Shown here: in pieces, positions 1,101 to 22,021 of the stretch | Layout of the letters: each line of letters begins with the position of its first letter | Numbering within the stretch: position 1 is the first letter of the stretch | Assembly: GCA_965228485.1 (NCBI GenBank) | Contig: OZ245819.1 | Coordinates: 1,200,001 to 1,232,000 of the forward strand | From: Candidatus Saccharimonadota bacterium | GTDB taxonomy: Bacteria > Patescibacteriota > Gracilibacteria > UBA4473 | Direction: 5' to 3' | Length of the DNA stretch: 32,000 nucleotides | Notes under the pieces: generated by a model | Database searches by the model: none | Told to the model about the DNA's origin: nothing | Seen by the model: the letters and a program-made list of their open reading frames with translations, nothing else | Translations under genes and position numbers: made by a program

Positions 1101-4100
1101 ATGCCAAAAGTTACGAAAAAACTCAACCTTCCGGCTAAACTAAAGCCAATGAAAACTGAAAACGGTCGGTGTTTTTACACGAGCGAAGTTGGAGATAATT
1201 TTCCATTTCCAAACCTTATTGAAGTTCAGTTGAAATCTTATCAATGGTTTTTACAAGAGGGAATCCAAGAACTCTTGGACGAAATTAATCCTATCGAGGA
1301 TGCGACGGGGAAAAAACTTCGCCTAGAAATTCTTTCTCACGAAGTAGAAGAACCAAAACATGATATTGATTTTTGTAAGCAGAAAGGTCTTACTTACGAA
1401 GCTTCAATTCGTGCTCACGTAGCGCTAACGAATCTAGAAACTGGGGAAATTAAAGAACAAGATGTTTACTTTGGACAAGTTCCACTGATTACTTCTATTG
1501 GGACTTTTATCATCAATGGTATTGAACGGGTGATCGTTTCTCAGATTGTGAGAAGCCCTGGGATTTTCTTTGCGCCTAATACAGCTCTACCAGGAGCTGT
1601 AACGGGAAAAATGATTCCAAAACGAGGAGCTTGGCTAGAAATTGAAAGTGATAAACGAGGTTTGATCTGGGTGAAAGTTGATCGAAAACGAAAAATCCCA
1701 GTGACTATGTTCTTGAGAGCTTTTGGATATGAATCGAATAAAGAGATTCTAGACCTTTTCAAAGATGTGATTGAAAGTGAAACTGAAAATCCAATCCTAA
1801 AAACATTGGAGAAAGATGAGTCAGAAGATGCAAAAGGAGCTTGGCAAGGAGTATATAAACGAATTCGACCAGGAGATTTGGCAACACCTGACAATGCTAA
1901 AGCTTTCTTGGATTCAATGTTTTTTGATTTCAAAAAATATGACCTTGGGCCGATTGCTCGATATAAAATTAATAATCGATTTGGTCTAAAAACCGAAGAT
2001 TCACCAGAAGGGCGAGTTTTCCGAATTGAAGATTTCGTTTCTATGGTAAAAGAAATGATTACTTATGATTCGAATGATGTTTATTATGATGATGATATTG
2101 ATCATCTATCAAACCGACGAATTCGAGGGGTAGGAGAACTCGTACAAAATAAATTCCGTGTAGGACTTTTGCGAACGGAACGAATCGTAAAAGATCGAAT
2201 GACTATCGTTGAGCTTGATAGTGTGACGCCTACACAATTGATTAACTGTCGGCCAATTACAGCAGCCATGCGAGAATTTTTTGCTTCTGGGCAGCTGTCT
2301 CAGTTCATGGATCAAACAAATCCGTTGGCAGCACTAGAGCATAAACGAAGAATTTCTGCTATGGGGCCAGGAGGGCTTAGTCGAGAACGAGCTTCGTTTG
2401 AAGTACGGGATGTACACCCATCTCACTACGGAAGAATTTGTCCGGTAACGACTCCAGAAGGACCGAATATTGGGTTAGTGCTACACTTGGCTTCTTACGC
2501 TCGAGTAAATGATATGGGATTCATTGAAACTCCATACCGAACGGTGGTTCATACTCGAAAAAATGATGGTAAATCTGCCGTTGGATACACAACGTCTATT
2601 GATGTTAAGGACGGTACTAAAGTGGTAGTAAAACAAGGAACCGAAATTACAGAAAAAGAAGCAAAAGCTTTAGCTAAAGTAAAAGACCTTAAGGTTGTAC
2701 CAGTTCGAGCACATGTTACGGATGAAGTGAATTACTACCGAGCTGAAGAAGAACGAAATATGTGTATTGCACAAGCGAATTCTCTTATGGATGAGCAAGG
2801 GCAGTTTGCAAAAGATCATATCGCGGCACGTAAAAACTTCGAACCAGGGACTTACCCTGTGGATGAAATCACTCATGTAGATATTTCTCCAAAACAGATT
2901 GTATCGCTTTCAACTTCACTGATCTCTTTCCTAGAGCATGATGATAATACGCGTGCACTAATGGGGTCAAACATGCAACGACAAGCGGTTCCACTTATCA
3001 AGCCACAGGCTCCAGTAGTGGGAACAGGAATGGAAGCTATTACTTCTGAAGAAGAATGTGTTCGAGCTCCTGAAGATGGAGAAATCAAATCAGCAGATGC
3101 TTCTGAAATTGTCTTTGTTGGAAAATCAGGAAAGAAAGAAACTTATCGATTGAAAGTATTTGAACGAACCAATCAATCAACCTGTATTCATCAACGACCA
3201 CGAGTTAATCGAGGAGATAAAGTAAAACAAGGAGATGTACTTATTGATGGAGCTTCGGTAGAAAACGGAGACATCGCTCTTGGGCAAAACTTGAAAGTTG
3301 CGTACATGTCTTGGGGAGGATACAACTATGAGGATGCGGTGATTGTTTCTGATCGTATCGTACGAGAAGGACTCTTCAACTCTATCCATATTGAAAAATA
3401 CGAGCTAGACGTTCGAGATACAAAACTAGGGTCAGAAGAACTAACTTCTGATATCCCAAATGTAGCCGCAGCTAAACTAAAAGATCTTGATGATAACGGA
3501 ATTGTTCGAATTGGGGCGACGGTTCTAGCGGGAGATATCTTAGCTGGGAAAGTAACGCCAAAAGGAGAAACAGAATTAACGGCTGAAGATAGACTTCTTC
3601 GAGCGATCTTTGGAGAGAAGGCTCATGATGTGAAAGATTCTTCTCTGAGACTTCCAAGAGGTTCTGGGGGGAAAGTAATTAACATTGAAGTTCTAGATCG
3701 AACAGAAGGAGATGATCTTCCAACAGGAGTACTAAAACGAGTAATCGTTGAAGTAGCTCAAATGCGTCATCTAGAAGCTGGGGATAAAATGGCGGGACGT
3801 CATGGGAATAAAGGGGTTATTTCTCAAATTGTTCCTTCTGAAGACATGCCATACATGGAGGATGGTTCGCCAGTAGATATTATTCTTAATCCACTAGGGG
3901 TTTCATCTCGGATGAATATCGGACAGGTATTAGAAACACATATTGGAATGGCCGCTTCTAAGATGGGAATCAAAGTAGCAACGCCAGTACTAAACGGGAT
4001 TAAAATGGATACTATCCAGGATTTTCTTGAAGCCAATGATATGCCAACAGATGGTAAATTCACTCTTTTTGATGGGAAAAGTGGAGAGGCTTTTGATCAT

Positions 4101-4676
4101 AAAGTAGTAGTGGGAACGACCTATATGTTGAAACTAATCCATCTTGTGGAAGATAAAATCCATGCACGTTCGGTTGGGCCTTACTCTCTTGTAACACAAC
4201 AACCTCTTGGAGGGAAAGCTCAGAATGGGGGACAACGTTTCGGAGAGATGGAGGTATGGGCTCTGGAAGCTTACGGAGCGGCTCATACGCTACAAGAAAT
4301 GTTAACTATCAAATCAGATGATGTTCATGGACGAGCGAAAGCTTATGAAGCGATCGTTAAAGATGAAGAAGTAGATCTGATTTCTATTCCAGAATCTTTC
4401 AATGTATTGATGAAAGAGCTTCAATCACTCTGTCTAAAAGTAGAACTTCTAAAAGATGGACAGGTTGAAGATGGAGTTGTGACAGATATGGATGAATTTG
4501 AAGAAACAACTGAAGCAAGTCTTTTGAAACAATCTGAGGATTACGCTGAAGTAGCTGAAACAGCAGAAGCTGAAAACACGTCCGCTATCCAAGTAAAAGA
4601 AGGAGAAGAAACAGATGCTGAAGCAGAAGGTGCCGAATCACCAGCTCCTGAAGCATCAGAAGAAAAAGAAGATTAA
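1101..4676 (+). CDS. rpoB: DNA-directed RNA polymerase subunit beta
   Basis: 1191-aa ORF with hallmark RpoB blocks: QLSQFMDQTNPL, RRISAMGPGGL, the HPSHYGRICPVTTPEGPNIGL region, NMQRQAVP, GRHGNKGV and GGQRFGEMEVWALEAYGAA. It ends in an acidic E/D/A-rich tail of about 90 aa. Confidence 0.98.
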   Translation: MPKVTKKLNLPAKLKPMKTENGRCFYTSEVGDNFPFPNLIEVQLKSYQWFLQEGIQELLDEINPIEDATGKKLRLEILSHEVEEPKHDIDFCKQKGLTYEASIRAHVALTNLETGEIKEQDVYFGQVPLITSIGTFIINGIERVIVSQIVRSPGIFFAPNTALPGAVTGKMIPKRGAWLEIESDKRGLIWVKVDRKRKIPVTMFLRAFGYESNKEILDLFKDVIESETENPILKTLEKDESEDAKGAWQGVYKRIRPGDLATPDNAKAFLDSMFFDFKKYDLGPIARYKINNRFGLKTEDSPEGRVFRIEDFVSMVKEMITYDSNDVYYDDDIDHLSNRRIRGVGELVQNKFRVGLLRTERIVKDRMTIVELDSVTPTQLINCRPITAAMREFFASGQLSQFMDQTNPLAALEHKRRISAMGPGGLSRERASFEVRDVHPSHYGRICPVTTPEGPNIGLVLHLASYARVNDMGFIETPYRTVVHTRKNDGKSAVGYTTSIDVKDGTKVVVKQGTEITEKEAKALAKVKDLKVVPVRAHVTDEVNYYRAEEERNMCIAQANSLMDEQGQFAKDHIAARKNFEPGTYPVDEITHVDISPKQIVSLSTSLISFLEHDDNTRALMGSNMQRQAVPLIKPQAPVVGTGMEAITSEEECVRAPEDGEIKSADASEIVFVGKSGKKETYRLKVFERTNQSTCIHQRPRVNRGDKVKQGDVLIDGASVENGDIALGQNLKVAYMSWGGYNYEDAVIVSDRIVREGLFNSIHIEKYELDVRDTKLGSEELTSDIPNVAAAKLKDLDDNGIVRIGATVLAGDILAGKVTPKGETELTAEDRLLRAIFGEKAHDVKDSSLRLPRGSGGKVINIEVLDRTEGDDLPTGVLKRVIVEVAQMRHLEAGDKMAGRHGNKGVISQIVPSEDMPYMEDGSPVDIILNPLGVSSRMNIGQVLETHIGMAASKMGIKVATPVLNGIKMDTIQDFLEANDMPTDGKFTLFDGKSGEAFDHKVVVGTTYMLKLIHLVEDKIHARSVGPYSLVTQQPLGGKAQNGGQRFGEMEVWALEAYGAAHTLQEMLTIKSDDVHGRAKAYEAIVKDEEVDLISIPESFNVLMKELQSLCLKVELLKDGQVEDGVVTDMDEFEETTEASLLKQSEDYAEVAETAEAENTSAIQVKEGEETDAEAEGAESPAPEASEEKED

Positions 4677-4689
4677 TCAGATAGATAAG

Positions 4690-4712
4690 AAGCGGGATTT
4701 ATTCCCGCTTTT
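4690..4712 (+). terminator. Hairpin plus U-tract just after the rpoB stop (terminator or processing/stability hairpin)
   Basis: AAGCGGGA-tttat-TCCCGCTT forms an 8-bp stem followed by TTAT. The tRNA-Gly 5' end lies only 2 nt further on, so this may attenuate or process rather than fully terminate. Confidence 0.45.
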
Positions 4713-4714
4713 AT

Positions 4715-4789
4715 GCGCGCATCGTATAGTGGCTATTATATTGCCTTGCCAAGGCAGAGACGCGAGTTCGATTCTCGCTGCGCGCTCCA
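4715..4789 (+). tRNA. tRNA-Gly (anticodon GCC), CCA encoded
   Basis: Hand-folded cloverleaf. Acceptor GCGCGCA/TGCGCGC. D-arm contains GG. Anticodon stem TTGCC/GGCAG with loop TTGCCAA. T-arm GCGAG-TTCGATT-CTCGC. Discriminator U, then CCA. Confidence 0.9.
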
Positions 4790-4793
4790 CGAA

Positions 4794-4830
4794 AAATTTC
4801 TTGAGTCTGATAAGACTTGAGAAATTTTTT
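4794..4830 (+). terminator. Rho-independent terminator after tRNA-Gly
   Basis: 14-bp stem AAATTTCTTGAGTC / GACTTGAGAAATTT (two G-U pairs) with loop TGATAA, followed by a T-run. Confidence 0.6.
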
Positions 4831-4845
4831 GTATAGCCCGAAAGG

Positions 4846-4939
4846 GCTGAGGATCGAACGATAAGAGTTCGACGGTAAGCCCAAATTTTTAATTTGAACG
4901 CTTCGTTCTAAACTTTGTTTAGATAAGAAGATTCTCGTT
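4846..4939 (+). repeat. tRNA-trailing module, copy A: three hairpins, then ATAAGAAGAT, then a partial copy of the tRNA-Gly T-arm
   Basis: Collinear identity blocks shared with 18405..18514: GATCGAAC, GTTCG, AAGCCCAAAT, ATTTG, GCTTCGTT, ATAAGAAGAT. Hairpins at 4854..4872, 4882..4896 and 4907..4923. GATTCTCGTT at 4930..4939 matches the tRNA-Gly sequence GATTCTCGCT (4770..4779) at 9/10 positions. Confidence 0.6.
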
Positions 4940-4986
4940 CTTAAGACTCCCTTGCTTATTCTTATAGGTCGTTATAATCCAGTCAG

Positions 4987-5679
4987 ATGGAAAAAATATT
5001 AATCCTTATAACCTTATTATTTCCCTTTATGGGGACGGTTTTGTGGGTTTTATTTAAGGTAATTAGGTTTATCCGATCTCAACATTCTACTCGAAATATT
5101 TTTCAATTAGGGATTGATATGGTTATGTTGCCCTTTAGTTTTTCAAAAATTTTCCTTCAGCGAAGAAAAGAAAAAGAGCTACCACTTTATTTTCAGTACT
5201 TTTTATCGTTTACTCGGTTTTGTAGCCGAATTCCTTATTTTCACTTTTTTCCAAAATTTGTGGTGGCAACGATCGCCGAAGTTTCGGTGCATTTTATTAC
5301 CCATCAACCTTTACTAACGGCTTTGATCTATAGTTGGAGTTTGTTCTTTTTGATCATTATTACCATGGTCGAATCGATGTATGGAGAGTTTGACGAAGAC
5401 GTTATCACTCTGGCTAACAAACTGTTTTTGTACAGCGTCTCGATGATTGTGTTGTTTTGTTTGATGGTCTGGGCTTTCTTCTGGAAAGTGGTTGAACCAA
5501 GTCTAGATAATTGGTTTCTCCAGATGATGTCGAAAGTTGCCGAGTTTTCGAATGAAAAAATGTGGGAGCTGATTGTAGCGTTTTGGGGATGGCCATTATC
5601 GATAAAATTCCTAATTTTACTGGCATTAGGGCTGTATGTTTCTAGTTCTCTCTATCTCTCTAAGAAAGGGATTAAGTAA
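4987..5679 (+). CDS. Polytopic membrane protein, function unknown
   Basis: 230-aa ORF with several long hydrophobic segments (LILITLLFPFMGTVLWVLF, LFFLIIITMV, IVLFCLMVWAFFW, FLILLALGLYV). A perfect TATAAT at 4973..4978 lies 8 nt before the ATG. Confidence 0.55.
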   Translation: MEKILILITLLFPFMGTVLWVLFKVIRFIRSQHSTRNIFQLGIDMVMLPFSFSKIFLQRRKEKELPLYFQYFLSFTRFCSRIPYFHFFPKFVVATIAEVSVHFITHQPLLTALIYSWSLFFLIIITMVESMYGEFDEDVITLANKLFLYSVSMIVLFCLMVWAFFWKVVEPSLDNWFLQMMSKVAEFSNEKMWELIVAFWGWPLSIKFLILLALGLYVSSSLYLSKKGIK

Positions 5680-6091
5680 TTTCTGGATGAAATTTTGGGA
5701 GAGGTTTTCCGTGCGGGCAGGTTTGCGGATTTCCGAGTAAGTCGGCAATTTTTAAAATTACTTTATTTGAACAAGCATGTTCTAGTTGGTGGGCTTCTTG
5801 ATGGACTTCGTTTTCTTTGAATCCTAATGTTTCGATCAGAAATAGTTCAATGATTCGATGTTTATAGGTGAGATTTTCAGCAATTTTTTTCCCTGTTGGA
5901 GTGAGTTCAATTGGTTTGTATTTTTCCTGTATAATCCAGTCCTTATTCTGTAATTCATTGAGTCGTTGACTGACGGTTGATTTTGTTAGTTGGAGTTTGT
6001 CTAAAAGTTCGACGCTTTTAATCGGTCTATCTAATTCTTCTTGTAAGAGATAAATCGCTCTCAGATAGTCTTCCTGGGTTTGTGTAATCAT
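5672..6091 (-). CDS. DtxR/MntR-family metal-dependent transcriptional repressor (no SH3 domain)
   Basis: 139 aa. The opening EDYLRAIYLL, a winged helix (STVSQRLNELQNKDWI), the dimerisation/metal region YKHRIIELFL...HQEAHQLEH and the ending CPHGKPLP are typical of DtxR/IdeR/MntR proteins. Confidence 0.88.
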   Translation of the reverse strand: MITQTQEDYLRAIYLLQEELDRPIKSVELLDKLQLTKSTVSQRLNELQNKDWIIQEKYKPIELTPTGKKIAENLTYKHRIIELFLIETLGFKENEVHQEAHQLEHACSNKVILKIADLLGNPQTCPHGKPLPKFHPEIT

Positions 6092-6099
6092 TTTTCTTT

Positions 6100-6125
6100 A
6101 AAAAGTTTGTATATGCGAACTTTTT
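6100..6125. promoter_or_regulatory. Candidate metalloregulator operator (26-nt near-palindrome) in the divergent promoter region
   Basis: AAAAAGTTtGtATATgCgAACTTTTT: the outer 8 nt and the central ATAT are perfectly symmetric. It lies between the DtxR-like gene and the transporter gene. Confidence 0.4.
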
Positions 6126-6163
6126 TGTTATAGTCCCATCATAGATATTTGTACATTAAAAAG

Positions 6164-7315
6164 ATGAAAGATAAAATTTTTTGGAAAAGTTTGTTTAAGA
6201 AAGATCGTATTTGGAGGTGGGTGCTATTGTTTGTTTTAGTCTCAATCCCTGTATTAGGGGGCGAAGAAACGCGAGAAGTTTTTTTTAGTACTTTGTCGGA
6301 CGCTTATATTCAAGTAACAGTCTTTGTGGCTCTAACGCTCTTTATTTTTTATGGGCTTGAAGCTTTACTAAAGGTGGATACGGAAGCACTGCTAAAGAAA
6401 CACAAAAAATATCAAATTCCAATTTCAGCTATTGTTGGAGCTTTGCCTGGATGTGGTGGAGCTATTATGATTATGACGCAGTATTCAGTTGGACGCCTTG
6501 GTTTTGGATCAGTAGTAGCGGTTCTGACCTCGACTATGGGAGATGCGGCATTTTTATTACTGGCCAAAGAACCAAAAACAGCACTTTTTGTTTTTGTGAT
6601 TTCTCTTACCATAGGGATTTTGTTTGGGTATTTAGTAGAGAAAATTCATGGGTATGATTTTCTTCGTCAAAATGCAAATTCAGGGGCTTATTGTGGAGGA
6701 ATATTTCATTATGAACACTTAAAATTACCTTGGGTTTTGTTATTTATTCCTGGGATTGTACTCGGACTTATGACGGCTTTTCAGATGGATACAGATCTTG
6801 TGGTCGGTATTGATGGATTCACTTTATGGTTTGGAGCTATAGGAGCTATTCTATCAATTTTACTCTGGTTCTTTAATCCTAACAATGGTCCGAGTGTTAC
6901 GAATCGATTTGAAGAACCATCACATGATTCAGTTTGGGATAAAACTACGGCTGATACTTGTTTTATAACCTTATGGGTAGTGATTGCTTTTTTACTTTTC
7001 GAACTGGGGATTCACTGGACGGCTTTTGATCTCAAGGGAATATTTGATACGGTGAAACCGTTAGTTCCACTAATGGCGGTAGTCATTGGTTTTTTACCAG
7101 GATGTGGGCCGCAAGTATTGGTTACGACCTTGTATTTGCAGGGGTATATTCCGTTATCAGCCCAGTTGGGGAATGCTATTAGTAACGATGGTGATGCTCT
7201 GTTTCCTGCACTGGCGGTTTCTCCAAAAGCGTCTTTTGTAGCGACGATTTATACCGCTATTCCAGCGCTTATTGTGGCGTATTTATATTTCTTTTTGATG
7301 GAAGGAGGATTCTAA
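6164..7315 (+). CDS. 10-TM putative metal (Mn/heavy-metal) transporter, ArsP_2-like
   Basis: The track ORF starts at TTG 6149; the first ATG is at 6164. It shows an internal two-fold repeat, each half carrying LPGCG(G/P) followed by a GD/NDGDA motif (ALPGCGGAIMIM...TMGDAAFLLL and FLPGCGPQVLV...ISNDGDALFP). From memory this matches the family annotated as putative manganese transporter / ArsP_2. It is transcribed divergently from the DtxR-like repressor. Confidence 0.65.
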   Translation: MKDKIFWKSLFKKDRIWRWVLLFVLVSIPVLGGEETREVFFSTLSDAYIQVTVFVALTLFIFYGLEALLKVDTEALLKKHKKYQIPISAIVGALPGCGGAIMIMTQYSVGRLGFGSVVAVLTSTMGDAAFLLLAKEPKTALFVFVISLTIGILFGYLVEKIHGYDFLRQNANSGAYCGGIFHYEHLKLPWVLLFIPGIVLGLMTAFQMDTDLVVGIDGFTLWFGAIGAILSILLWFFNPNNGPSVTNRFEEPSHDSVWDKTTADTCFITLWVVIAFLLFELGIHWTAFDLKGIFDTVKPLVPLMAVVIGFLPGCGPQVLVTTLYLQGYIPLSAQLGNAISNDGDALFPALAVSPKASFVATIYTAIPALIVAYLYFFLMEGGF

Positions 7316-7371
7316 TGCTTGACCTGAAAAATAAAGGAGGGTAGCATCGAAGTTGATTAATTTTTATTATC

Positions 7372-8163
7372 ATGCCACCTAAAAAAAATAAAAACACAGC
7401 CTCTCACACAAATTCAGAAGCTTCATCAGTCGCACTATTAGTGTCGGCGATAAGTTTTTTTGGACTTTTTCTCTGCACGATTTTTGGTCTAAATTTTTTG
7501 TATCAAGATTTGGCGGAGGTTACAGAACCTGTAGCGACGATTTCGACACAGTCAGTTGGAGAAGTCTATGCGGTTCCTGACCAGGTTCGAGTGAATATTG
7601 GTGTAATGGAAGCGGATATAGATATTAAAACGGCACAGAAAAAAGCTCAGGACAAAATTGATGAACTTAACAAAGCTTTAAGAAAACTAGGGATTGATGA
7701 AAGTCATATCAAAACACAGTACTTTTCGGTAAATTCGAATTATGACTGGTCTGTTCAGCCACGAGTTTTGACGGGATATACAGCAAACCATACTTTGGGA
7801 GTAACGGTTAATAACGTTGATATTGTTGATAAGGTGATTGAGATTATCATTAGCGAAGTTGGTGTTGATGTTCAGAATGTACAGTTTGTACTGAAAGATG
7901 AGACCAAGAAATCGGTGCTTCTTCAGGCTCGTGATAAAGCATTGGCTAGAGCTGAAAATCAGGCATTAGATATCGCTGGTCAGCAAGGTAAAAACCTTAA
8001 AGAGTTAATCAGCGTAAAAGTCTTTGAAGACACTAATGCTGTAAGTTACTATGACGAAGTTAATTATGGTCGTGGTGGGGGAGGTGGTTATGGAGGACAT
8101 GTATTCCAGTTTGGGCAGATAAAAGTTTCACAAACAGCTTTCACTGAGTACATTGTTGAGTGA
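7372..8163 (+). CDS. SIMPL-domain (DUF541) protein with N-terminal membrane anchor
   Basis: 263 aa. One TM segment, then SIMPL-like blocks (VRVNIGVME...AQ, IKTQYFSVNSNYDW, GYTANHTLGVTV, ARDKALARAENQALDIA). Gly-rich GRGGGGGYGG near the C-terminus. Confidence 0.8.
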   Translation: MPPKKNKNTASHTNSEASSVALLVSAISFFGLFLCTIFGLNFLYQDLAEVTEPVATISTQSVGEVYAVPDQVRVNIGVMEADIDIKTAQKKAQDKIDELNKALRKLGIDESHIKTQYFSVNSNYDWSVQPRVLTGYTANHTLGVTVNNVDIVDKVIEIIISEVGVDVQNVQFVLKDETKKSVLLQARDKALARAENQALDIAGQQGKNLKELISVKVFEDTNAVSYYDEVNYGRGGGGGYGGHVFQFGQIKVSQTAFTEYIVE

Positions 8164-8837
8164 TGTCTCAACTGACTCTTACTCCAGATCAACAGGCTAA
8201 ATTAGAGAACCTTTTGCAGCAGTTTTTGGAGTGGAATTCAAAAATTAATTTATCAGCTATTCGTGATGAAAACGAAGCTTGGGAAAAGCATGTTTTAGAC
8301 TCGCTATTACCGATGTCAAAGTTTAGTTTCTCTAAAAAAAGAATTCTAGATATTGGCACTGGTGGAGGTTTCCCAGTTTTACCTTTGGCGGTAATGAATC
8401 CATCCTCTAAGTTCTCGGCGCTTGATAGTGTGGGGAAAAAAATGAAAGTTGTTCAGGCTATGGCTGATGATTTAAATCTTAAAGTAAAGGCTTATCATGG
8501 TCGTATTGAAGAATTTGGGCAAAATTCTAAATTTCGTGAACAATATGATTTAGTTACTGCTCGGGCTTTAGCTCCTTGGCCAGTATTACTTGAATATGCG
8601 TTACCTTTTGTGAAGGTGGGAGGTTCTTTTTTGGCCTACCAAGGGCCTCAAATTGAGGAAGATTTAGAAGTTTTTAAAGGACTTGAGAAAAAACTTGGAG
8701 CTAAGGTTAAGCGTATAGAAAAGATGATAATAGGGGATTCGGAGAGAATTTTTGTAGAGCTACAAAAGACAAGCCACACGGCGCGAAAATATCCTCGAGC
8801 CAATGGCATTCCCCGAAAAATGCCTTTAGAAGTTTAG
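8163..8837 (+). CDS. rsmG: 16S rRNA (guanine527-N7)-methyltransferase
   Basis: WNSKINLSAIRDENEAWEKHVLDSL, the SAM motif ILDIGTGGGFPVLPLA, DSVGKK and DLVTARALAP are typical of GidB/RsmG. ATG 8163 overlaps the upstream stop (TGATG). The track lists GTG 8160. Confidence 0.9.
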   Translation: MSQLTLTPDQQAKLENLLQQFLEWNSKINLSAIRDENEAWEKHVLDSLLPMSKFSFSKKRILDIGTGGGFPVLPLAVMNPSSKFSALDSVGKKMKVVQAMADDLNLKVKAYHGRIEEFGQNSKFREQYDLVTARALAPWPVLLEYALPFVKVGGSFLAYQGPQIEEDLEVFKGLEKKLGAKVKRIEKMIIGDSERIFVELQKTSHTARKYPRANGIPRKMPLEV

Positions 8838-9532: not shown

Positions 9533-9693
9533 TAGTATTTTTTACAGAAAATATCGTTGTAATTGGTTGGCTCTTGAAAGTGTTTTCTTGAGTAGTGTTC
9601 GGACTTTTTACCCGTATTAAAATGTGATACTGGACGGTGGTATCCCATAACTCGAGTCCAGATTTCGCATCGGGTTCGGTTTGATTTTGTCAT
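9532..9693 (-). CDS. Stand-alone 53-aa glycyl-radical peptide of the class III RNR (not in the ORF track)
   Basis: Hand translation of the minus strand gives MTKSNRTRCEIWTRVMGYHRPVSHFNTGKKSEHYSRKHFQEPTNYNDIFCKKY. The segment EIWTRVMGYHRPVxxFNxGKKxEHxxRKHF matches the NrdD C-terminal glycyl-radical signature RxxGY...NxGK...E...R. Its stop TAA (9534..9532) overlaps the nrdG ATG (TAATG). It is separated from the nrdD stop by a 25-nt AT-rich spacer. Confidence 0.7.
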   Translation of the reverse strand: MTKSNRTRCEIWTRVMGYHRPVSHFNTGKKSEHYSRKHFQEPTNYNDIFCKKY

Positions 9694-9718
9694 TGTATAA
9701 GTTGGTTTAATAAATTAA

Positions 9719-11848
9719 TTAGCAAGTAGTACAAGCAGGCTTGGCTTGGTAGTTTGATTCGTAAATTTTACGAGTGCTTCGGTCGAATTTTTCTGGTCCT
9801 TGATATCCAATCTCTTCATCACATAGTGGACAGTAGTCATGTTCTCCTTCTATGTATCCATGTTTTGGACAGATTGAGAAGGTTGGAGTAATAGTGATAT
9901 AAGGAAGATGAAATTTAGACAGTACTTTTTTGACGAGAGATCGACAGGCTTTGGCGTCGGAAATTCTTTCCCCCATATAGAGATGAAGAACGGTTCCCCC
10001 TGTGTACTTAGTCTGCAGACGATCTTGTAGCATGAGGGCTTCAAAAGCATCTTCGGTGTATTCCACAGGGAGTTGCGAAGAGTTTGTATAATACGGGGCT
10101 TCTAGGCTTCCAGCTTGGATAATTTCTGGAAAGAGTTTTTTGTCTTCTCTCGCAAAACGATAAGTAGTTCCTTCGGCGGGAGTCGCTTCTAGATTATAGA
10201 GATTTCCTGTTTCTTCTTGATATGTCTGTAGTTTATGCTGCATAAAGACGAGGACTTCTTCAGCAAAATCTTGTCCCCAAGAGGTGGCGATATTTTCCTG
10301 ATCATTGGAGAAGTTTCTAATAGCTTCATTAAGACCGTTAATTCCAATGGTAGAAAAATGATTCCCTAATCCTCGAAGGTATCTTTTGCTATAGGGGAAA
10401 AGACCTGATTCCATAAGTCTTTCGATTTCTTTTCTTTTAATTTCTAGAGAGCTTTTCGAGAGTTCCATTAGGTGTTCTATTTGTTTTAGAAAACCTTCTT
10501 TATTTCCTCTGTAGGCACATCCAATTCTGGCAGCATTAATGGTGACGACACCAATTGAGCCGGTCATTTCCGCTGATCCAAAGAGTCCGTTTCCTCGCTT
10601 CATGAGCTCGGTTAGGTCTAGTTGTAATCTGCAGCACATAGAACGAACTTGATTTGGTTCCATATCTGAATTAATAAAATTTTGGAAATAGGGCATTCCA
10701 TATTTTGCTGTCATTTCAAAGAGTGGAATAGTATTTTCAGCTTCCCAGTCAAAGTCTTTAGTGATGTTGTATGTTGGGATTGGGAAGGTGAAAACTCTAT
10801 TTTTGGCATCTCCTTCCGTCATGACTTCAATATAAGCTCGATTAATGATGTCCATTTCTGGCTGAAGTTCTTCGAAGGTATATTCAAAATATTCCCCTCC
10901 GAGTTTCAGCTTTTGAATTTTTAGGTCTTCAGGACAAACCCAGTCGAGTGTAATATTGGTGAAAGGCGTTTGAGTTCCCCAACGAGAAGGTACGTTTAGG
11001 TTAAAAACAAAGGCTTGAATATTTTGTTTCACATATTTAAAGGTGGCTTTTTCTGCCAATGTATTAAGTTTTTCTTCGTTAATACCTGGGTTGATTGCTT
11101 TTATTTCCGCTTCTTTTTCTAATTTATACTTTTTTACAAAAGGGGAGAGATAGGTATCGAAACTAGAGAAGGCTTGAGCTCCAGCCCATTCATTTTGGAG
11201 TGTTCCTAAAAAGTTAACCATTTGAGATACGGCGGTTGAAAGGTGTTTTGGTGGGAGTGATTCAGTCTTGTTAGCAACTCCATTAAAACCTTCTTCTAGA
11301 AGTGCGCGCAGACTCCATCCAGCACAATATCCAGCCATCATATCGAGATCGTGAATATGGATATCGGCATTTCTGTGAGCGTTTCCAACTTTTTCTGGAT
11401 AAATATGAGAAAGCCAGTAATTGGCCGTTACTTTTCCAGAAGTGTTTAGAATTAATCCTCCAAGACTATAACCTTGATTGGAGTTTGCATTTACTCTCCA
11501 ATCAGTTTTGCTCAGATATTCATTTATGGTGTTTTTGACTCCAACAGCAATATTTTTGTCTGACCTAACTTCGGATCGTTTTTGTCGGTAGAGAATGTAG
11601 GATTTAGCTACTTCTGGAAGGTTGGACTCAATAAGAACTTTTTCGACGAAGTCTTGGATATTTTCTACGGTAGGAATGCCTGTTTTGTAATTTTTTTTAA
11701 GATAGCTCACTACCTTCTTAGTGAGTTGTTCAGCCGTTTCTTGGCTTTCTTCTTGGCTACTATTGAGCGCTTTTTGGATTGCTTGAGTAATTTTTGGAGG
11801 CTCAAAAGCCACAATCTCGCCGGATCTTTTCTGAATTTTTAAAAACAT
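9719..11848 (-). CDS. nrdD: Anaerobic ribonucleoside-triphosphate reductase large chain (class III) with N-terminal ATP-cone, lacking a canonical glycyl-radical motif
   Basis: 709 aa. ATP-cone (IQKRSGEIVAFEPPKI...VAKSYILYRQKR), NrdD core blocks (RSMCCRLQLD, FGSAEMTGSIGVVTINAARIG, GTVLHLYMGE) and a C-terminal Cys/His cluster CPKHG-x9-CPLC. The tail EEIGYQGPEKFDRSTRKIYESNYQAKPACTTC has no RxxGY. Confidence 0.93.
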   Translation of the reverse strand: MFLKIQKRSGEIVAFEPPKITQAIQKALNSSQEESQETAEQLTKKVVSYLKKNYKTGIPTVENIQDFVEKVLIESNLPEVAKSYILYRQKRSEVRSDKNIAVGVKNTINEYLSKTDWRVNANSNQGYSLGGLILNTSGKVTANYWLSHIYPEKVGNAHRNADIHIHDLDMMAGYCAGWSLRALLEEGFNGVANKTESLPPKHLSTAVSQMVNFLGTLQNEWAGAQAFSSFDTYLSPFVKKYKLEKEAEIKAINPGINEEKLNTLAEKATFKYVKQNIQAFVFNLNVPSRWGTQTPFTNITLDWVCPEDLKIQKLKLGGEYFEYTFEELQPEMDIINRAYIEVMTEGDAKNRVFTFPIPTYNITKDFDWEAENTIPLFEMTAKYGMPYFQNFINSDMEPNQVRSMCCRLQLDLTELMKRGNGLFGSAEMTGSIGVVTINAARIGCAYRGNKEGFLKQIEHLMELSKSSLEIKRKEIERLMESGLFPYSKRYLRGLGNHFSTIGINGLNEAIRNFSNDQENIATSWGQDFAEEVLVFMQHKLQTYQEETGNLYNLEATPAEGTTYRFAREDKKLFPEIIQAGSLEAPYYTNSSQLPVEYTEDAFEALMLQDRLQTKYTGGTVLHLYMGERISDAKACRSLVKKVLSKFHLPYITITPTFSICPKHGYIEGEHDYCPLCDEEIGYQGPEKFDRSTRKIYESNYQAKPACTTC

Positions 11849-18116: not shown

Positions 18117-18171
18117 ATTTCTTCGTATTATACGTGAAAAACCACTTTTTTTCAAATTTTATGATGTTGCT

Positions 18172-18199
18172 TTGAAAAAAGATTATGAAAGCTTAAAGT
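18172..18199 (+). promoter_or_regulatory. Promoter-like repeat P1 (TTGAAA-16-TAAAGT)
   Basis: Part of the 31-mer at 18171..18201 that is 28/31 identical to 18285..18315. It is followed by a short hairpin-plus-U-tract region (18218..18248) rather than a gene. Confidence 0.35.
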
Positions 18200-18285
18200 T
18201 TCAAGTTAGATTCCCTGAAAAAGGCGGAGAGCATAGCGCGCCTTTTTTAGGAAGAGGAGAAAAAATGGTAAGCTGAAATGAAATT

Positions 18286-18313
18286 TTGAAAAAAATTTTT
18301 GAAAGCTTAAAGT
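18286..18313 (+). promoter_or_regulatory. Promoter P2 for tRNA-Arg (TTGAAA-16-TAAAGT)
   Basis: The -10 ends 11 nt before the mature 5' end of the tRNA. Confidence 0.55.
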
Positions 18314-18324
18314 TTTTTCGACGT

Positions 18325-18398
18325 GACCTCATAGTTTAATGGAAAAACGTCCCCCTCCTAAGGGGAAGCTGCAGGTTCGATCCCTGCTGGGGTCACCA
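18325..18398 (+). tRNA. tRNA-Arg (anticodon CCU), CCA encoded
   Basis: Hand-folded. Acceptor GACCTCA/TGGGGTC. D-arm GTTT-AATGGAA-AAAC. Anticodon stem TCCCC/GGGGA with loop CTCCTAA. T-arm GCAGG-TTCGATC-CCTGC. Discriminator A, then CCA. Confidence 0.88.
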
Positions 18399-18404
18399 TA
18401 AAAA

Positions 18405-18514
18405 GCTCAGATCGAACCTATAAGGTTCGTCTGAAAGCCCAAATCTTGATTTGGAGCTGGAAGCTTCGTTTTTCCTGTTAAGGGAAATAAGAAGATCCCT
18501 GCTGGGGTCACCAT
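18405..18514 (+). repeat. tRNA-trailing module, copy B: three hairpins, then ATAAGAAGAT, then a perfect 21-bp copy of the tRNA-Arg 3' end
   Basis: Hairpins at 18408..18433, 18439..18454 and 18471..18487. GATCCCTGCTGGGGTCACCAT at 18494..18514 is identical to 18379..18399. Collinear with module A at 4846..4939. Confidence 0.7.
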
Positions 18515-18996
18515 TAGCGTTCGATGGCGATGAGGCCGCTTCGAACCCATTTGATAACTTCGATATTATTTTTAAGAATTGTTTCTAGAAATTTTTCTAG
18601 CACTTGGCTCGTATCCATTAATTCCAAACAGAGGATGTGTCCATCACGGTGCAGTTCTTTTACTAAAATATCTCCTTCGGCCTGTTTCAGAAAAGTTTCA
18701 TCATTATCGTCCATCACTTTAAATTTAGCGAGGACTACCTCTCGGGCAATAGTGGTTTCTGGTTGAAGAATCTTTACTTCAATCACTTCTATAAGTTTGC
18801 TGATAGCTTGTGCGACTTTATTTGCTTCAGATTCATCTCCAATGATAGTAATAGTGAAGTGTGATCGTTTCGGATTGGAGGTTCGTCCTACGGTGAGAGA
18901 ATCTATGTTGAATAATTTTCGTCTGAGTAATCCTGCAATTCGGGAAAGAACTCCAGGAGCATTTTGTGTTGTAACCGAAAGGATTTGTTTCTTCAT
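18514..18996 (-). CDS. ilvN: Acetolactate synthase small (regulatory, ACT-domain) subunit
   Basis: 160 aa. The ACT signature LSVTTQNAPGVLSRIAGLLRRKLFNIDSLTVG is typical of IlvH/IlvN. Located directly downstream of ilvB. Confidence 0.85.
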   Translation of the reverse strand: MKKQILSVTTQNAPGVLSRIAGLLRRKLFNIDSLTVGRTSNPKRSHFTITIIGDESEANKVAQAISKLIEVIEVKILQPETTIAREVVLAKFKVMDDNDETFLKQAEGDILVKELHRDGHILCLELMDTSQVLEKFLETILKNNIEVIKWVRSGLIAIER

Positions 18997-21715: not shown

Positions 21716-22021
21716 CTAGAGGTTAGCAAGCATAATATCTAGATTTTCAATTTCAGCTTCTTCTTTTTCTTCGACAATTTCTTCGGCATAATCATAAATA
21801 GCTCGAATTTCTTTTTCGGCCATTTGTTTGTGATGAGCGGCTTCTCGATGGTACTTATCAATAAAAAATCGATGTTCTTCTTCTAAGAGAAGTTTTAGTT
21901 CAGCGATTTTTACCTCATCCAGTTCTGGAATTTTTGTTTTTATCACTTCTTTTTGCTCATCTGAGAAGATTTTTGAACCTTTTAATAATCGTAGAATGTA
22001 GCTGAGATCAATTTGAGTCAT
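21716..22021 (-). CDS. Hypothetical acidic helical protein (101 aa)
   Basis: Intact ORF downstream of the DHH-like gene. Coiled-coil-like E/K-rich sequence. No recognised motif. Confidence 0.45.
   Translation of the reverse strand: MTQIDLSYILRLLKGSKIFSDEQKEVIKTKIPELDEVKIAELKLLLEEEHRFFIDKYHREAAHHKQMAEKEIRAIYDYAEEIVEEKEEAEIENLDIMLANL

Follow-up and report, generated by a model that had tools for sequence, protein, structure and literature searches.

Folded modules that carry a repeat of the host tRNA 3′ end trail tRNA genes in Gracilibacteria and may mark small insertions at the T-loop

Two related modules in one genomic window

The stretch of DNA analyzed here (the window, 32,000 nucleotides) contains two tRNA genes that are each trailed by a structured module; all features lie on the forward strand unless noted. 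At the first locus, tRNA-Gly(GCC) occupies 4715..4789 (ARAGORN; Rfam tRNA, 59.5 bits), with A58 of its T-loop at base 4771 and positions 59-76 at 4772-4789. A spacer at 4790..4833, in which the fold and an inverted repeat give a long hairpin and then a T-run, looks like a terminator of tRNA-Gly. Next come a predicted mini-hairpin, H0 (AGCCC-GAAA-GGGCT, 4835..4848), and a hairpin, H1 (4849..4872), composed of an antisense strand that we call anti-T (GAGGATCGAAC, 4849-4859), a loop, and a short sense copy, T′ (GAGTTCGA, 4865-4872). Anti-T complements T-arm positions 54-64 with one G.T pair allowed, and its best match is its own tRNA (a run of 12, versus a maximum of 11 for other tRNAs), while T′ is identical to tRNA positions 51-58. 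The core that follows (type I, 4873..4931, ending ..AAGAAGA) contains the P2/H2 arm (AAGCCCAAAT..ATTTG, with its 3′ strand partly deleted), the helix P3 (CTTC at 4901-4904 with GAAG at 4927-4930), and hairpin H3 (TCTAAAC-TTT-GTTTAGA, 4907-4923). Model R1 matches this module, copy A, at 4848-4939 with 84.1 bits. Beyond the core lies an eroded copy of tRNA-Gly from position 59 onward (TTCTCGTT.., 4932..4949), in which about 7 of 14 bases remain and TTCTCG (4932-4937) is the only remaining match; the full tRNA-Gly 20-mer has no second occurrence elsewhere in the window at up to 3 mismatches.

The second locus is better preserved at its far edge. Copy B follows tRNA-Arg(CCT) (18325..18398; ARAGORN, Rfam tRNA), has neither H0 nor a terminator, and starts only ∼8 nt after the CCA. 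Its H1 (TCAGA-T-CGAACCT / ATA / AGGTTCG-TCTGA, 18407..18434, by folding) includes T′ at 18423-18429, and its type I core (18430..18495, ending ..AAGAAGA; model R1 match 18406-18503, 91.3 bits) has the same arms: P2/H2 (AGCCCAAAT..ATTTGG-A-GCT), P3 (CTTC at 18464-18467 with GAAG at 18491-18494), and H3 (TTTCC-TGTTAAG-GGAAA, 18471-18487). The core runs into GATCCCTGCTGGGGTCACCA (18494..18513), a 20/20 copy of the tRNA-Arg 3′ end that stops at the CCA. This 20-mer, which spans T-loop G57 to A76 in the tRNA gene itself (18379-18398), occurs twice in the window, versus 0.00 occurrences expected, and the base right after the second copy is the end of an ilvH-like gene on the reverse strand (18514-18996).

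An earlier note on this DNA had proposed that one homologous three-hairpin module lies behind both tRNA genes, and had asked whether the likeness exceeds chance. The homology and the shared fold are confirmed. Copies A (4848-4939) and B (18406-18503) share the collinear blocks GATCGAAC, GTTCG, AAGCCCAAAT, ATTTG, GCTTCGTT, and ATAAGAAGAT, and their local alignment scores 42, ∼12 standard deviations over shuffled sequences (n = 2,000; mean, 13.9; standard deviation, 2.3; maximum, 31) and above the top score of 26 among the 697 remaining segments of the window. The pattern GATCGAACN{4,10}GTTCG has two matches in the window, versus 0.00 expected. In folds and pair counts, the sequence of hairpin 3 has changed between the copies while its pairing is kept. 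Copy A is the more eroded of the two, with ∼6 nt missing from the 3′ side of hairpin 2.

The piece of tRNA sequence at the end of each module is no decoration: it duplicates, in direct orientation, the tRNA from position 59 to its 3′ end and marks the outer border of a small insertion. Two further segments within the module match the host, namely, the T′ copy and the antisense anti-T strand, which is host specific in some copies. In a relative (locus L050), the same core stands behind tRNA-Gly(GCC) and is followed by TTCTCTCTGCGCGC, which matches that tRNA at 14/14 positions; thus, the tail of copy A is a decayed remnant and not a chance match. Together with the 20/20 repeat of copy B, this bears out the earlier claim that host tRNA sequence takes over directly after ..AAGAAGA.

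Copies in other Gracilibacteria

Scans of other genomes retrieved further copies, all downstream of tRNA genes. Seven lie outside the window, in other Gracilibacteria, behind six tRNA species (Arg[TCT], Gly, Leu, Trp, Val, and Ser), so that the idea of one structured element at different tRNAs now extends well past the original pair. The nine type I copies follow tRNA-Gly(GCC) (twice), Gly(TCC), Arg(CCT), Arg(TCT), Leu, Trp, Val, and Ser(GGA) and come from at least seven genomes or metagenomes, with Gracilibacteria of the CPR as the source wherever the organism is known. All nine modules, each ∼95 bases long, lie on the tRNA strand, between ∼8 nt and 1.2 kb downstream of the tRNA, and all end in ..AAGAAGA, after which the sequence of the neighboring tRNA continues from position 59 on.

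The type I core is one of several. Core types II to V are unrelated in sequence and occupy the same slot within the same frame of H0, anti-T, and T′. Most other units have an H0-like mini-hairpin with a C-GNA-G or C-GNNA-G loop in the same place, and spacers with a hairpin and T-run, equivalent to 4790..4833, are found in L003, L006, L010, L011, L050, L051, and L055. As several copies thus sit 3′ of a separate, ordinary terminator, the earlier statement that ordinary terminators do not explain the module is upheld.

At the 15 listed junctions, the tRNA repeat starts at position 57 to 59, directly after the core end. The exact start (G57, A58, or N59) depends on the core type, positions 54-56 are not common to the core end, and T′ terminates at A58 in nearly all units. 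Repeats behind tRNAs range from 12 to 96 nt at 10 loci besides the window and are host specific, matching their own tRNA at 14/14 positions in most units versus at most 8 to 13 for other tRNAs; anti-T is clearly host specific in only 5 of 13 units.

Units also accumulate behind one tRNA gene. L050 carries two, with 96/96 identical repeats around two different cores, and in L055 positions 59-76 occur three times, 18/18 each, with a different terminator behind every copy. The third unit of L055 contains a DUF4238 gene, and a homologous gene lies between tRNA and module in L010; both are on the opposite strand, and DUF4238 is the only cargo seen in units. In L011, a 63-nt repeat ends at a terminator T-run, likely the 3′ end of the primary transcript.

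Empty sites are found among relatives at tRNA-Gly in L053 (identical in tRNA sequence to that of the window), tRNA-Ser in L054, and tRNA-Arg(CCT) in L057, the closest relative. Occupied sites are common: about 10 of 15 tRNA genes have a unit in a sample not chosen by pattern. Some units are eroded, such as copy A and the unit at tRNA-Gly of L057, and the older copies (copy A, L003, L006, and L057) have lost the tail and part of H2. The L003 copy is 84% identical to that of the window over 231 nt (tRNA plus module), and the rest of the locus is dissimilar; with no flanking genes in common, we rejected it as an orthologous locus. Also set aside were L001, L004, L005, and L007 from the genome scan, which are plain hairpins or coding DNA, and a repeat candidate 2.7 kb downstream of the L053 tRNA-Gly, which lies within a gene for a V-type ATPase and was taken as a chance match.

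Predicted fold of the module

Over the nine type I copies, 92 to 93% of the proposed pair cells form standard pairs, compared with at most 49% when the partners are slid. Compensatory changes on both sides occur in 10 of 29 pairs. For four of five measures, none of 500 shuffles reached the observed value; for the fifth, further pair types, 6 of 500 did. With covariation in hairpin 3, P2, and the closing helix, the suggestion that selection acts on structure gains support. G.T pairs outnumber A.C mismatches by 7 to 2, which favors the tRNA-sense strand as the folded form.

The module is predicted to fold as a four-way junction in which anti-T has two partners, T′ on the near side of the core and positions 59-63 beyond it. 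In copy B (W_B), L006, and L051, the closing helix, P1, is weak or missing. An internal loop of the GNA/GRA type is conserved among copies, and the fold contains tandem G.A loops. At the gathering threshold, an Rfam search of the window and five subregions matched only the tRNAs; relaxing it to E values of up to 10 gave weak miRNA or plastid matches, none near the gathering score of its family, and neither a self-cleaving ribozyme nor any other Rfam family could be assigned. Inspection by eye of the cores as hammerhead, hairpin-ribozyme, box C/D, or tRNA-like RNAs found the required core motifs missing, and a reading of the H2 loop as an anticodon loop was likewise rejected by eye.

A model of small elements inserted in the T-loop

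At roughly even odds, our best explanation is that small, cis-mobilizable elements without an integrase insert into Gracilibacteria tRNA genes between T-loop positions 58 and 59 and that the module forms their tRNA-distal (attR-side) end. Read outward from the tRNA, such a unit would start with fresh positions 59-76, which complete the tRNA, and would usually continue with a terminator of its own; optional cargo, mini-hairpin H0, hairpin H1 (anti-T and T′), and a core of 65 to 95 nt would follow. The second copy of positions 59-76, after the core, would be the displaced original 3′ end. The T-arm piece described in the earlier note would then be this displaced end, and the three hairpins of that note would be H1 and the pair of arms in the type I core. 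The layout, the exact 58|59 junction, the direct repeats, the tandem buildup, and the cargo in one unit are features of the loci as they stand, as are the filled and empty sites among relatives, the decay of old copies, and the conserved single-strand fold. Cis-mobilizable elements keep both att sites, carry no mobility genes, and accrete beside related elements; the repeats, the lack of mobility genes, and the tandem units at the loci examined would be compatible with this pattern.

Movement would require an enzyme supplied in trans, presumably a site-specific strand transferase encoded elsewhere, as for att-only elements. Genes for a recombinase, transposase, or reverse transcriptase were found neither within nor next to any unit, nor elsewhere in the window or among those checked at the Gracilibacteria loci examined, and no integrase or transposase was found around L002, L006, and L013; the enzyme is therefore purely inferred. 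The form recognized may be the folded tRNA-sense strand. Anti-T would bring T′, whose last base is A58, and positions 59-63 together in one helix that mimics the duplex of the target T-arm, and the core arms would exit this helix exactly at the exchange point, giving the topology of a Holliday junction. No circular or free form and no autonomous full-length element turned up: four IMG/VR pattern scans gave only chance matches in coding DNA, and copy B had no BLAST match in phage and plasmid collections.

Several features qualify this model. T-loop identity that starts at position 57 to 59, rather than spanning the whole 7-nt loop as in the T-loop class of tyrosine integrase sites, fits a classical tyrosine integrase crossover poorly. 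A plain att arm leaves the host-matched T′ and anti-T unexplained. Repeats of 12 to 96 nt could also arise via homologous recombination or an RNA-templated process. Other arrangements of the same parts fared worse: a split tRNA or T-loop intron was rejected given that an intact tRNA stands upstream of each unit and that anti-T, not positions 1-49, precedes T′, and a core that independently parasitizes an intact second T-arm copy is unlikely, with 0 of the 15 listed junctions joining T′ directly to position 59.

A bolder interpretation, which we think improbable but worth stating, is an insertion system guided to its target by base pairing, with a recombinase or reverse transcriptase acting in trans, or else the first bacterial retroelement to use the 18 tRNA bases of retroviral primer-binding sites. 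If base pairing is the means, anti-T would read across the cut site in the T-loop of a tRNA gene, with T′ and the 59-76 tail as the matching “exon-like” flanks and the interchangeable cores as enzyme-binding scaffolds. Such a system would be naturally reprogrammable and would already have been retargeted to at least seven tRNA species.

Alternative explanations

Ordinary intergenic sequence, whether terminators or chance likeness in AT-rich DNA, has next to no probability left. There are hairpins at each locus, and copy A stands behind a terminator-like one, but the alignment score ∼12 standard deviations above shuffles and the seven additional, covarying copies in other genomes refute this reading; moreover, the module lies 3′ of real terminators, and its last hairpin has no T-run. 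A functional small RNA, made with or beside the tRNA, is a more serious proposal that we nevertheless regard as rather unlikely. Such an RNA would begin with a mini-hairpin, continue as a four-way-junction scaffold, and close with a single-stranded 3′ tail equal to the acceptor 3′ strand, and it might guide a tRNA-gene-targeting protein in the manner of a TnpB omega-RNA or IS110 bridge RNA or act as a decoy or regulator of tRNA processing. The structure backed by covariation, the retained GNA/GRA internal loop, and the complementarity of anti-T to the T-loop across the junction all suit it, as does a scaffold that passes directly into 18 to 20 host-specific nucleotides, a layout like that of RNAs with a 3′ guide. 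Copy B must also be cotranscribed with its tRNA, since no terminator separates them. In most units, however, a terminator stands between module and tRNA, and no promoter-like site was found near copy A. Further counts against an RNA function are the absence of Rfam matches, the lack of an effector gene linked to any copy, and the exchange of several unrelated cores in one slot. The loss of the tail and part of H2 from older copies argues against lasting purifying selection on the supposed guide.

We give the same low standing to a retroelement-like origin, in which a read-through transcript in the tRNA sense (module plus 59-76 tail) is copied back into a tRNA gene through reverse transcription, either target-primed or tRNA-primed. 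The tail would anneal where the gene is nicked, and copying blocked at modified A58 would account for the 58|59 boundary. In long terminal repeat (LTR) retroelements, primer-binding sites match tRNA positions 59-76 up to the CCA, because this part is copied before reverse transcriptase stops at modified A58; because of this block, the primer-binding sites of retroviruses cover no more than the final 18 nt of the tRNA. Units duplicate the same 18 nt: the repeat is exactly positions 59-76 three times in L055 and within 1 to 3 nt of this in copy B, L002, and L054, and its right edge is the CCA end at all four loci, so that the unit boundaries at 58|59 and CCA are suggestive. Consistent with an RNA intermediate are also the 63-nt repeat of L011, which stops at the likely 3′ end of a primary transcript, the fold on the tRNA-sense strand with its G.U pairs and tandem G.A loops, and the constant core end opposite a variable tRNA-proximal end (truncated in copy B), a pattern common in retro-copies. 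Against it, no reverse transcriptase gene occurs at any locus examined, the terminator at the start of most units would end a read-through transcript early, the cargo gene of L010 and L055 is oppositely oriented, and repeats that span flanking DNA and the H0/H1 frame (96 nt, L050) suggest DNA-level events. Unlike in LTR elements, the unit copy is in the tRNA sense and beside the tRNA gene, there are no LTRs, and some repeats extend past the CCA.

Less probable again is a miniature single-strand DNA transposon of the IS200/IS605 kind (PATE-like) that inserts 3′ of TTCGA in the T-loop without target duplication. Elements of this kind insert 3′ of a short fixed sequence, make no target duplication of their own, have subterminal hairpins, and use one strand; in the TnpB omega-RNA, the structured right end abuts flanking sequence that serves as the guide. 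The replacement tRNA 3′ end plus hairpin would form the left end, H3 (∼9 nt from the cleavage site) would mark the right end, and the CTTC/GAAG helix would be the pairing of guide to cleavage site. Units resemble such elements in their exact insertion behind a fixed pentanucleotide, their strand-specific fold, a structured end set against the flank, and subterminal hairpins ∼18 to 25 nt from the left and ∼9 nt from the right end, distances comparable to those of IS608. The H0 loops are of the C-GNA-G type, which forms very stable DNA mini-hairpins. Yet no tnpA or tnpB gene is nearby, and Rfam, which includes IS605-associated RNA motifs, gave zero matches to these or to omega-RNAs. The left-end hairpins differ wholly between units and from H3, where one transposase should see alike ends; T′ and anti-T are left unexplained; and, unlike IS200/IS605 elements, a unit restores the gene that it interrupts. 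Nor do units resemble MITEs, as terminal inverted repeats and a fixed-length target duplication are absent: the unit ends (post-CCA sequence and ..AAGAAGA) are not inverted repeats, and the 12- to 96-nt repeat is tRNA sequence.

Relation to known integrative elements

As in tRNA and tmRNA islands, the proposed T-loop elements lie between the intact gene and a direct repeat of that gene's 3′ portion. No integrase gene was found beside an att site within an element, in the window or among the genes around units, and the units are too short to encode one. The closest analogue is the ssrA islands of Dehalococcoides, which insert midway along the tmRNA T-loop, with a 20-bp repeat of the gene's 3′ end as their boundary and a conserved motif just upstream of each repeat, and which occur in tandem; many have no integration genes, and the authors of that report suggest that these may be cis-mobilizable elements (PMC3146451). 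The 20/20 repeat in the window, the tandem units in relatives, and the missing integrase recall these islands. In contrast, the islands are kilobases long and use one gene, whereas the units described here are 95 to 260 nt long, are mostly gene-less, occur at no fewer than seven tRNA species, and have not been seen with an integrase in any case. For a four-way-junction end with sense and antisense T-arm copies, the available portion of the report notes no counterpart (PMC3146451). Our literature search found no description of such a variant of tRNA-targeted mobile DNA.

Two further systems share some of these features. IMEX elements (e.g., the CTX phage of Vibrio cholerae) lack a recombinase, exploit host XerCD, and insert in tandem at one chromosomal site, with an attachment site that is a single strand folded to imitate the duplex target. 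Units are similar in having no recombinase, in their tandem occurrence, and in a fold that imitates a duplex target; the target here is the tRNA T-loop rather than dif, no Xer-type site is apparent, and use of single-stranded DNA by units is suggested solely by the fold and the G.T bias. Integron cassettes are small, sometimes gene-less units that are arrayed at one site by an enzyme in trans, and their attC site is a hairpin defined by structure, with ..AAC / GTT.. arms. H1 has the comparable form ..GAAC-loop-GTTC.., and newcomers appear to enter beside a fixed site, as in integron arrays. The unit junction nonetheless follows A58, unlike the G|TT crossover of integrons; the H1 loop of 3 to 7 nt is too short for L boxes; every unit supplies the tRNA 3′ end anew; and no intI, attI, or Pc was found at units.

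Gracilibacteria are a lineage of the candidate phyla radiation with genomes of ∼1.3 Mb. If the model of T-loop insertion is correct, their tRNA loci are commonly trailed by miniature insertions that no annotation tool reports, and these would account for stray tRNA 3′ fragments in Gracilibacteria genomes. An essential gene could then be reused repeatedly as a landing site without damage. A fold that rebuilds the target T-arm at the exchange point is a testable idea of how an enzyme-less element presents itself to an enzyme in trans; if that enzyme reads a nucleic acid mimic or the pairing of anti-T, the system could be retargetable. As a separate observation, the tRNA-Gly locus of the window adjoins a stretch of variable gene content.

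Related modules behind the two tRNA genes of the window

ARAGORN predicted two tRNA genes in the window, tRNA-Gly(GCC) (4715-4789) and tRNA-Arg(CCT) (18325-18398), both confirmed by Rfam. The earlier note reported that the same ordered blocks follow both genes, and this was confirmed. Local alignment of 4846-4931 with 18405-18495 gave a score of 42, compared with 13.9 ± 2.3 (maximum, 31) for shuffled sequences (n = 2,000) and a top score of 26 for 697 other window segments. The likeness of the two modules is thus far beyond chance. The pattern GATCGAACN{4,10}GTTCG occurs twice in the window, with 0.00 occurrences expected. Each module was also said to close in sequence of its host tRNA. Indeed, positions 18494-18513 of the Arg copy, directly behind ..AAGAA, repeat tRNA bases 18379-18398 (T-loop G57 to the CCA end) without a mismatch (20/20); in the Gly copy, the tail is reduced to TTCTCG. 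Terminators and chance similarity were excluded as the source of the modules, which bears out the note's view that ordinary terminators do not explain them.

The window genes form an ordinary housekeeping set (rpoB, ribonucleotide reductases, ilvBH, serS, a CCA-adding-type nucleotidyltransferase, pyruvate kinase, and a type IV secretion pilin), with no recombinase among them. rpoB is directly followed by tRNA-Gly, not rpoC (1101-4789), and no rpoC lies within the window; tRNA-Gly(GCC) is located within about 1.2 kb downstream of rpoB in 5/6 rpoB relatives examined. Near tRNA-Arg, a 31-nt repeat with 90% identity occurs at 18171-18201 and 18285-18315, 114 nt apart, and both copies hold a promoter-like TTGAAA-16-TAAAGT. 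The second copy is immediately upstream of tRNA-Arg, and behind the first lie a terminator-like hairpin and a short GATTCCCTG resembling a T-loop/T-stem piece. These features may have been left by a previous rearrangement at the tRNA locus.

Further copies and their hosts

A pattern search of one genome per species retrieved three true matches: two (L002 and L003) in the complete Candidatus Altimarinota chromosome OZ246423.1 and one (L006) in a Gracilibacteria contig. Four other matches were attributed to chance. Metagenomes added L010 and L011, the latter identical to L012 and L013. A covariance model scan, as proposed in the earlier note, was run on the rpoB neighborhoods of relatives using a model (R1) built from seven copies, and retrieved two more (L050, 93.6 bits; L051, 61 bits). 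Because the genome and metagenome patterns were strict, divergent copies and any autonomous elements may have escaped. The organism-named nearest RpoB relatives of the window are mostly Candidatus Gracilibacteria.

Hosts of the nine copies are tRNA-Gly(GCC) (twice), Gly(TCC), Arg(CCT), Arg(TCT), Leu(TAA), Trp, Val, and Ser(GGA). All nine are downstream of the tRNA on its own strand, and all nine end in ..AAGAAGA followed by the sequence of the neighboring tRNA from position 59. The association with tRNA genes and the host-specific T-arm ending thus extend from the window pair to all nine copies of this type (type I).

Anatomy and fold of the type I module

In addition to the tail, two segments of the module derive from T-arm sequence. 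One is the 3' arm of hairpin 1 (T'), which repeats T-loop positions 54-58 together with the 2 to 4 bases that end the T-stem 5' strand (e.g., GAGTTCGA in the case of Gly and TAGGTTCGA in that of Arg(TCT)). The other, the 5' arm (anti-T), is complementary to the T-loop; in several copies, the complementarity reaches into the opening bases of the T-stem 3' strand. T' stops and the tail begins at one point, between A58 and N59. Tails match their own tRNA at 14/14 positions in most units versus at most 8 to 13 for other tRNAs, and the own tRNA is the single best partner of anti-T in 5/13 units.

The consensus fold is a four-way junction almost without unpaired linker. Four helices meet in it: P1 joins the 5' portion of anti-T to positions 59-63, H1 joins anti-T to T', P2/H2 carries a conserved internal loop (GNA/GRA), and P3/H3 completes the set. 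In the alignment, which was fitted to the model and whose nine sequences are few for covariation statistics, standard pairs occupy 92% of pair cells, versus ≤49% with partners slid by 1 to 3 columns, and 10/29 pairs changed on both sides. In a shuffle test (n = 500), no shuffle reached the observed value in four of five measures; in the remaining one, further pair types, 6/500 did. H3 covaries at 5/5 pairs and one P2 pair alternates among G-C, U-A, and A-U; H2 is nearly invariant, with a single C-G-to-A-T change in L051. Apparent covariation in P1 and H1 is inseparable from simple copying, as both strands copy tRNA sequence. These data support the proposed selection on structure. The excess of G.T pairs over A.C mismatches (7 versus 2) indicates that the folding strand is the tRNA-sense strand.

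A mini-hairpin (H0) lies in front of or inside H1 (window 4835-4848; L006 ~1004-1016; L010 ~1252-1264; L011 ~2440-2456; L050 13812-13825; within the H1 loops of L055). It is nearly always a C-G-closed GNA triloop or GNNA tetraloop, with GCA, GTA, GAA, GAAA, and GATA observed. Loops of this type are exceptionally stable in DNA, and one H0 contains GCGAAGC, an unusually stable DNA mini-hairpin.

Interchangeable cores within one frame

When the region behind every tRNA of the examined loci was searched for a copy of that tRNA's positions 59-72, additional repeats unrecognized by R1 were found. Their frame is constant. The tRNA is usually followed by a terminator; then come H0, in most cases with a C-GNA-G or C-GNNA-G loop, anti-T and a T' ending in ..GTTCGA, a core of 65 to 95 nt, and finally the repeat of positions 59 onward. 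The other cores are unrelated to type I, and searching them against Rfam gave no match. Type II follows tRNA-Gly and tRNA-Ser in L050, type III follows L053 tRNA-Ser, and types IV and V follow tRNA-Gly in L054 and L051, respectively; L055 has core variants, and the cores at L057 tRNA-Gly and L059 tRNA-Ser are eroded. The predicted folds of types III and IV are closed by a helix of anti-T with positions 59-64. The interpretation first drawn from two modules is therefore upheld and extended to a general architecture with several core types.

Between tRNA-Ser and its type II unit, L050 (5966-6075) contains an extra short piece, ..GAAGTCTCCGCCA, and then the same terminator that directly follows tRNA-Ser in L051. 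Its appearance is that of an insertion, nested or older, that used a different junction, located in the acceptor strand.

Evidence for insertion

In L050, tRNA-Gly is followed by a 96-nt block (positions 59-76, terminator, H0, and H1), a type II core, the same block again (96/96 identical), and then a type I core; a third copy of the tRNA end, now eroded, closes the array. L055 contains three identical copies (18/18) of positions 59-76, each with a different terminator behind it; units 1 and 2 have different cores, and unit 3 has a DUF4238 gene. These tandem layouts show that every unit supplies its own tRNA end and terminator. L010 carries a homologous DUF4238 gene (76% identity), placed between its tRNA-Trp and type I module.

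Presence varies among relatives, and the core type behind a given tRNA species differs from one relative to another. Counting only tRNA genes not selected by the pattern itself, about 10/15 have a unit. L053 tRNA-Gly(GCC), identical in sequence to that of the window, has no frame parts in the 400 nt downstream, and tRNA-Ser in L054 is an empty site. In the closest relative (L057, OZ246423.1; RpoB 84% identical), the pilin-ilvH interval, where the window has its Arg copy, contains a tRNA-Arg(CCT) without a module. Decay is also apparent: the window Gly copy lacks a portion of H2 and retains little of its tail, and the unit behind L057 tRNA-Gly is beyond recognition by R1. On the same chromosome, the similarity of L003 (5776-6006) to the window is confined to the 231 nt that make up tRNA and module (84% identity); no flanking gene is common to both, a pattern taken to reflect transposition. 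The host of L003 is tRNA-Gly(TCC), yet its T' is of the Gly(GCC) kind and its tail is mixed; the explanation is either movement of the unit from one Gly tRNA gene to the other or exchange of the tRNA body.

Several tRNA loci show other irregularities. The L057 tRNA-Arg(CCT) (21783-21856) is on the opposite strand relative to window 18325-18398 and differs considerably in sequence (acceptor stem, GCTTTCG.. versus GACCTCA..); it seems that the tRNA gene was itself replaced or inverted. The two "empty" tRNA-Ser(GGA) sites (L054 ~9650-9756 and L057 ~8600-8700; minus strand) have in common a conserved stretch, CTAATGGCACCTGATTCCTT.., that directly follows the tRNA and has no relation to the module. 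Upstream of tRNA-Val, L011 (2225-2285; same in L012 and L013) holds a second kind of tRNA fragment, a 5' piece of a Val-like tRNA (positions 1 to about 52) whose anticodon region is altered and which ends at the T-stem.

Identity and possible mechanism

The units are laid out like an element that has integrated in a tRNA gene. Such an element would give the gene a new 3' end and displace the old one to its own far side. tRNA fragments from integrating elements are a known annotation problem (PMC9897764). The closest documented case we found is the ssrA islands of Dehalococcoides, which insert mid T-loop of tmRNA, are bounded by a 20-bp repeat of its 3' end with a conserved motif immediately upstream of each repeat, and occur in tandem; many lack integration genes, and the authors suggest possible cis-mobilizable elements and propose a CcrB-like serine recombinase as the enzyme (PMC3146451). 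Compared with these islands, the present units are short (95 to 260 nt), target at least seven tRNA species, have interchangeable cores and, foremost, adopt a four-way-junction fold. On the basis of the layout and this precedent, we read the module, with moderate confidence, as the tRNA-distal end of miniature integrase-less units moved in trans. Functionally, it belongs with the tRNA/tmRNA T-loop integrating elements; no description of it was found in Rfam or in a full-text literature search.

In the proposed mechanism, anti-T would align T', ending at A58, and positions 59-63 into a single helix mimicking the T-arm duplex of the target, with the two core arms exiting exactly at the exchange point. 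The resulting strand topology would equal that of a Holliday junction once a single strand has been exchanged. From the strand bias and the H0 loop type, the active form may be a folded single strand, for which CTX-phage attP and integron attC are known parallels. There is a small but real probability that the mechanism is a new one, in which nucleic acid or a retro route guides the targeting.

Copying of the unit back via RNA and reverse transcription would account for the exact 18-nt repeat of positions 59-76, CCA-ended in several units, and for a 63-nt repeat in L011 that stops at the terminator's T-run. Retroviral primer-binding sites comprise the same 18 bases because reverse transcriptase halts at modified A58. 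Terminators nevertheless open most units, some repeats extend over the H0/H1 frame, and the loci examined contain no reverse transcriptase gene; we regard this route as improbable. We consider it no more probable that the module acts as a small RNA, either guide-like or a decoy: a host-specific tail behind a scaffold would suit such a role, but tails are eroded in older copies, and an effector gene was linked to none of the modules. Less probable still is an IS200/IS605-like single-strand transposon, whose left-end hairpins should be conserved and are not here, and for which neither tnpA nor tnpB was found, despite the exact insertion after TTCGA and the agreeing hairpin spacing.

Variable island at tRNA-Gly

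Gene content between tRNA-Gly and gidB differs in every relative; the tRNA-Gly locus thus adjoins a variable island. The window (4987-8163) has four genes there, encoding a 230-amino-acid membrane protein, a DtxR-like repressor, an ArsP_2 exporter, and a SIMPL protein. L052 (7020-7493) has none, L050 (14267-19174) encodes two large surface proteins, and L057 (14660-19869) has five other genes.
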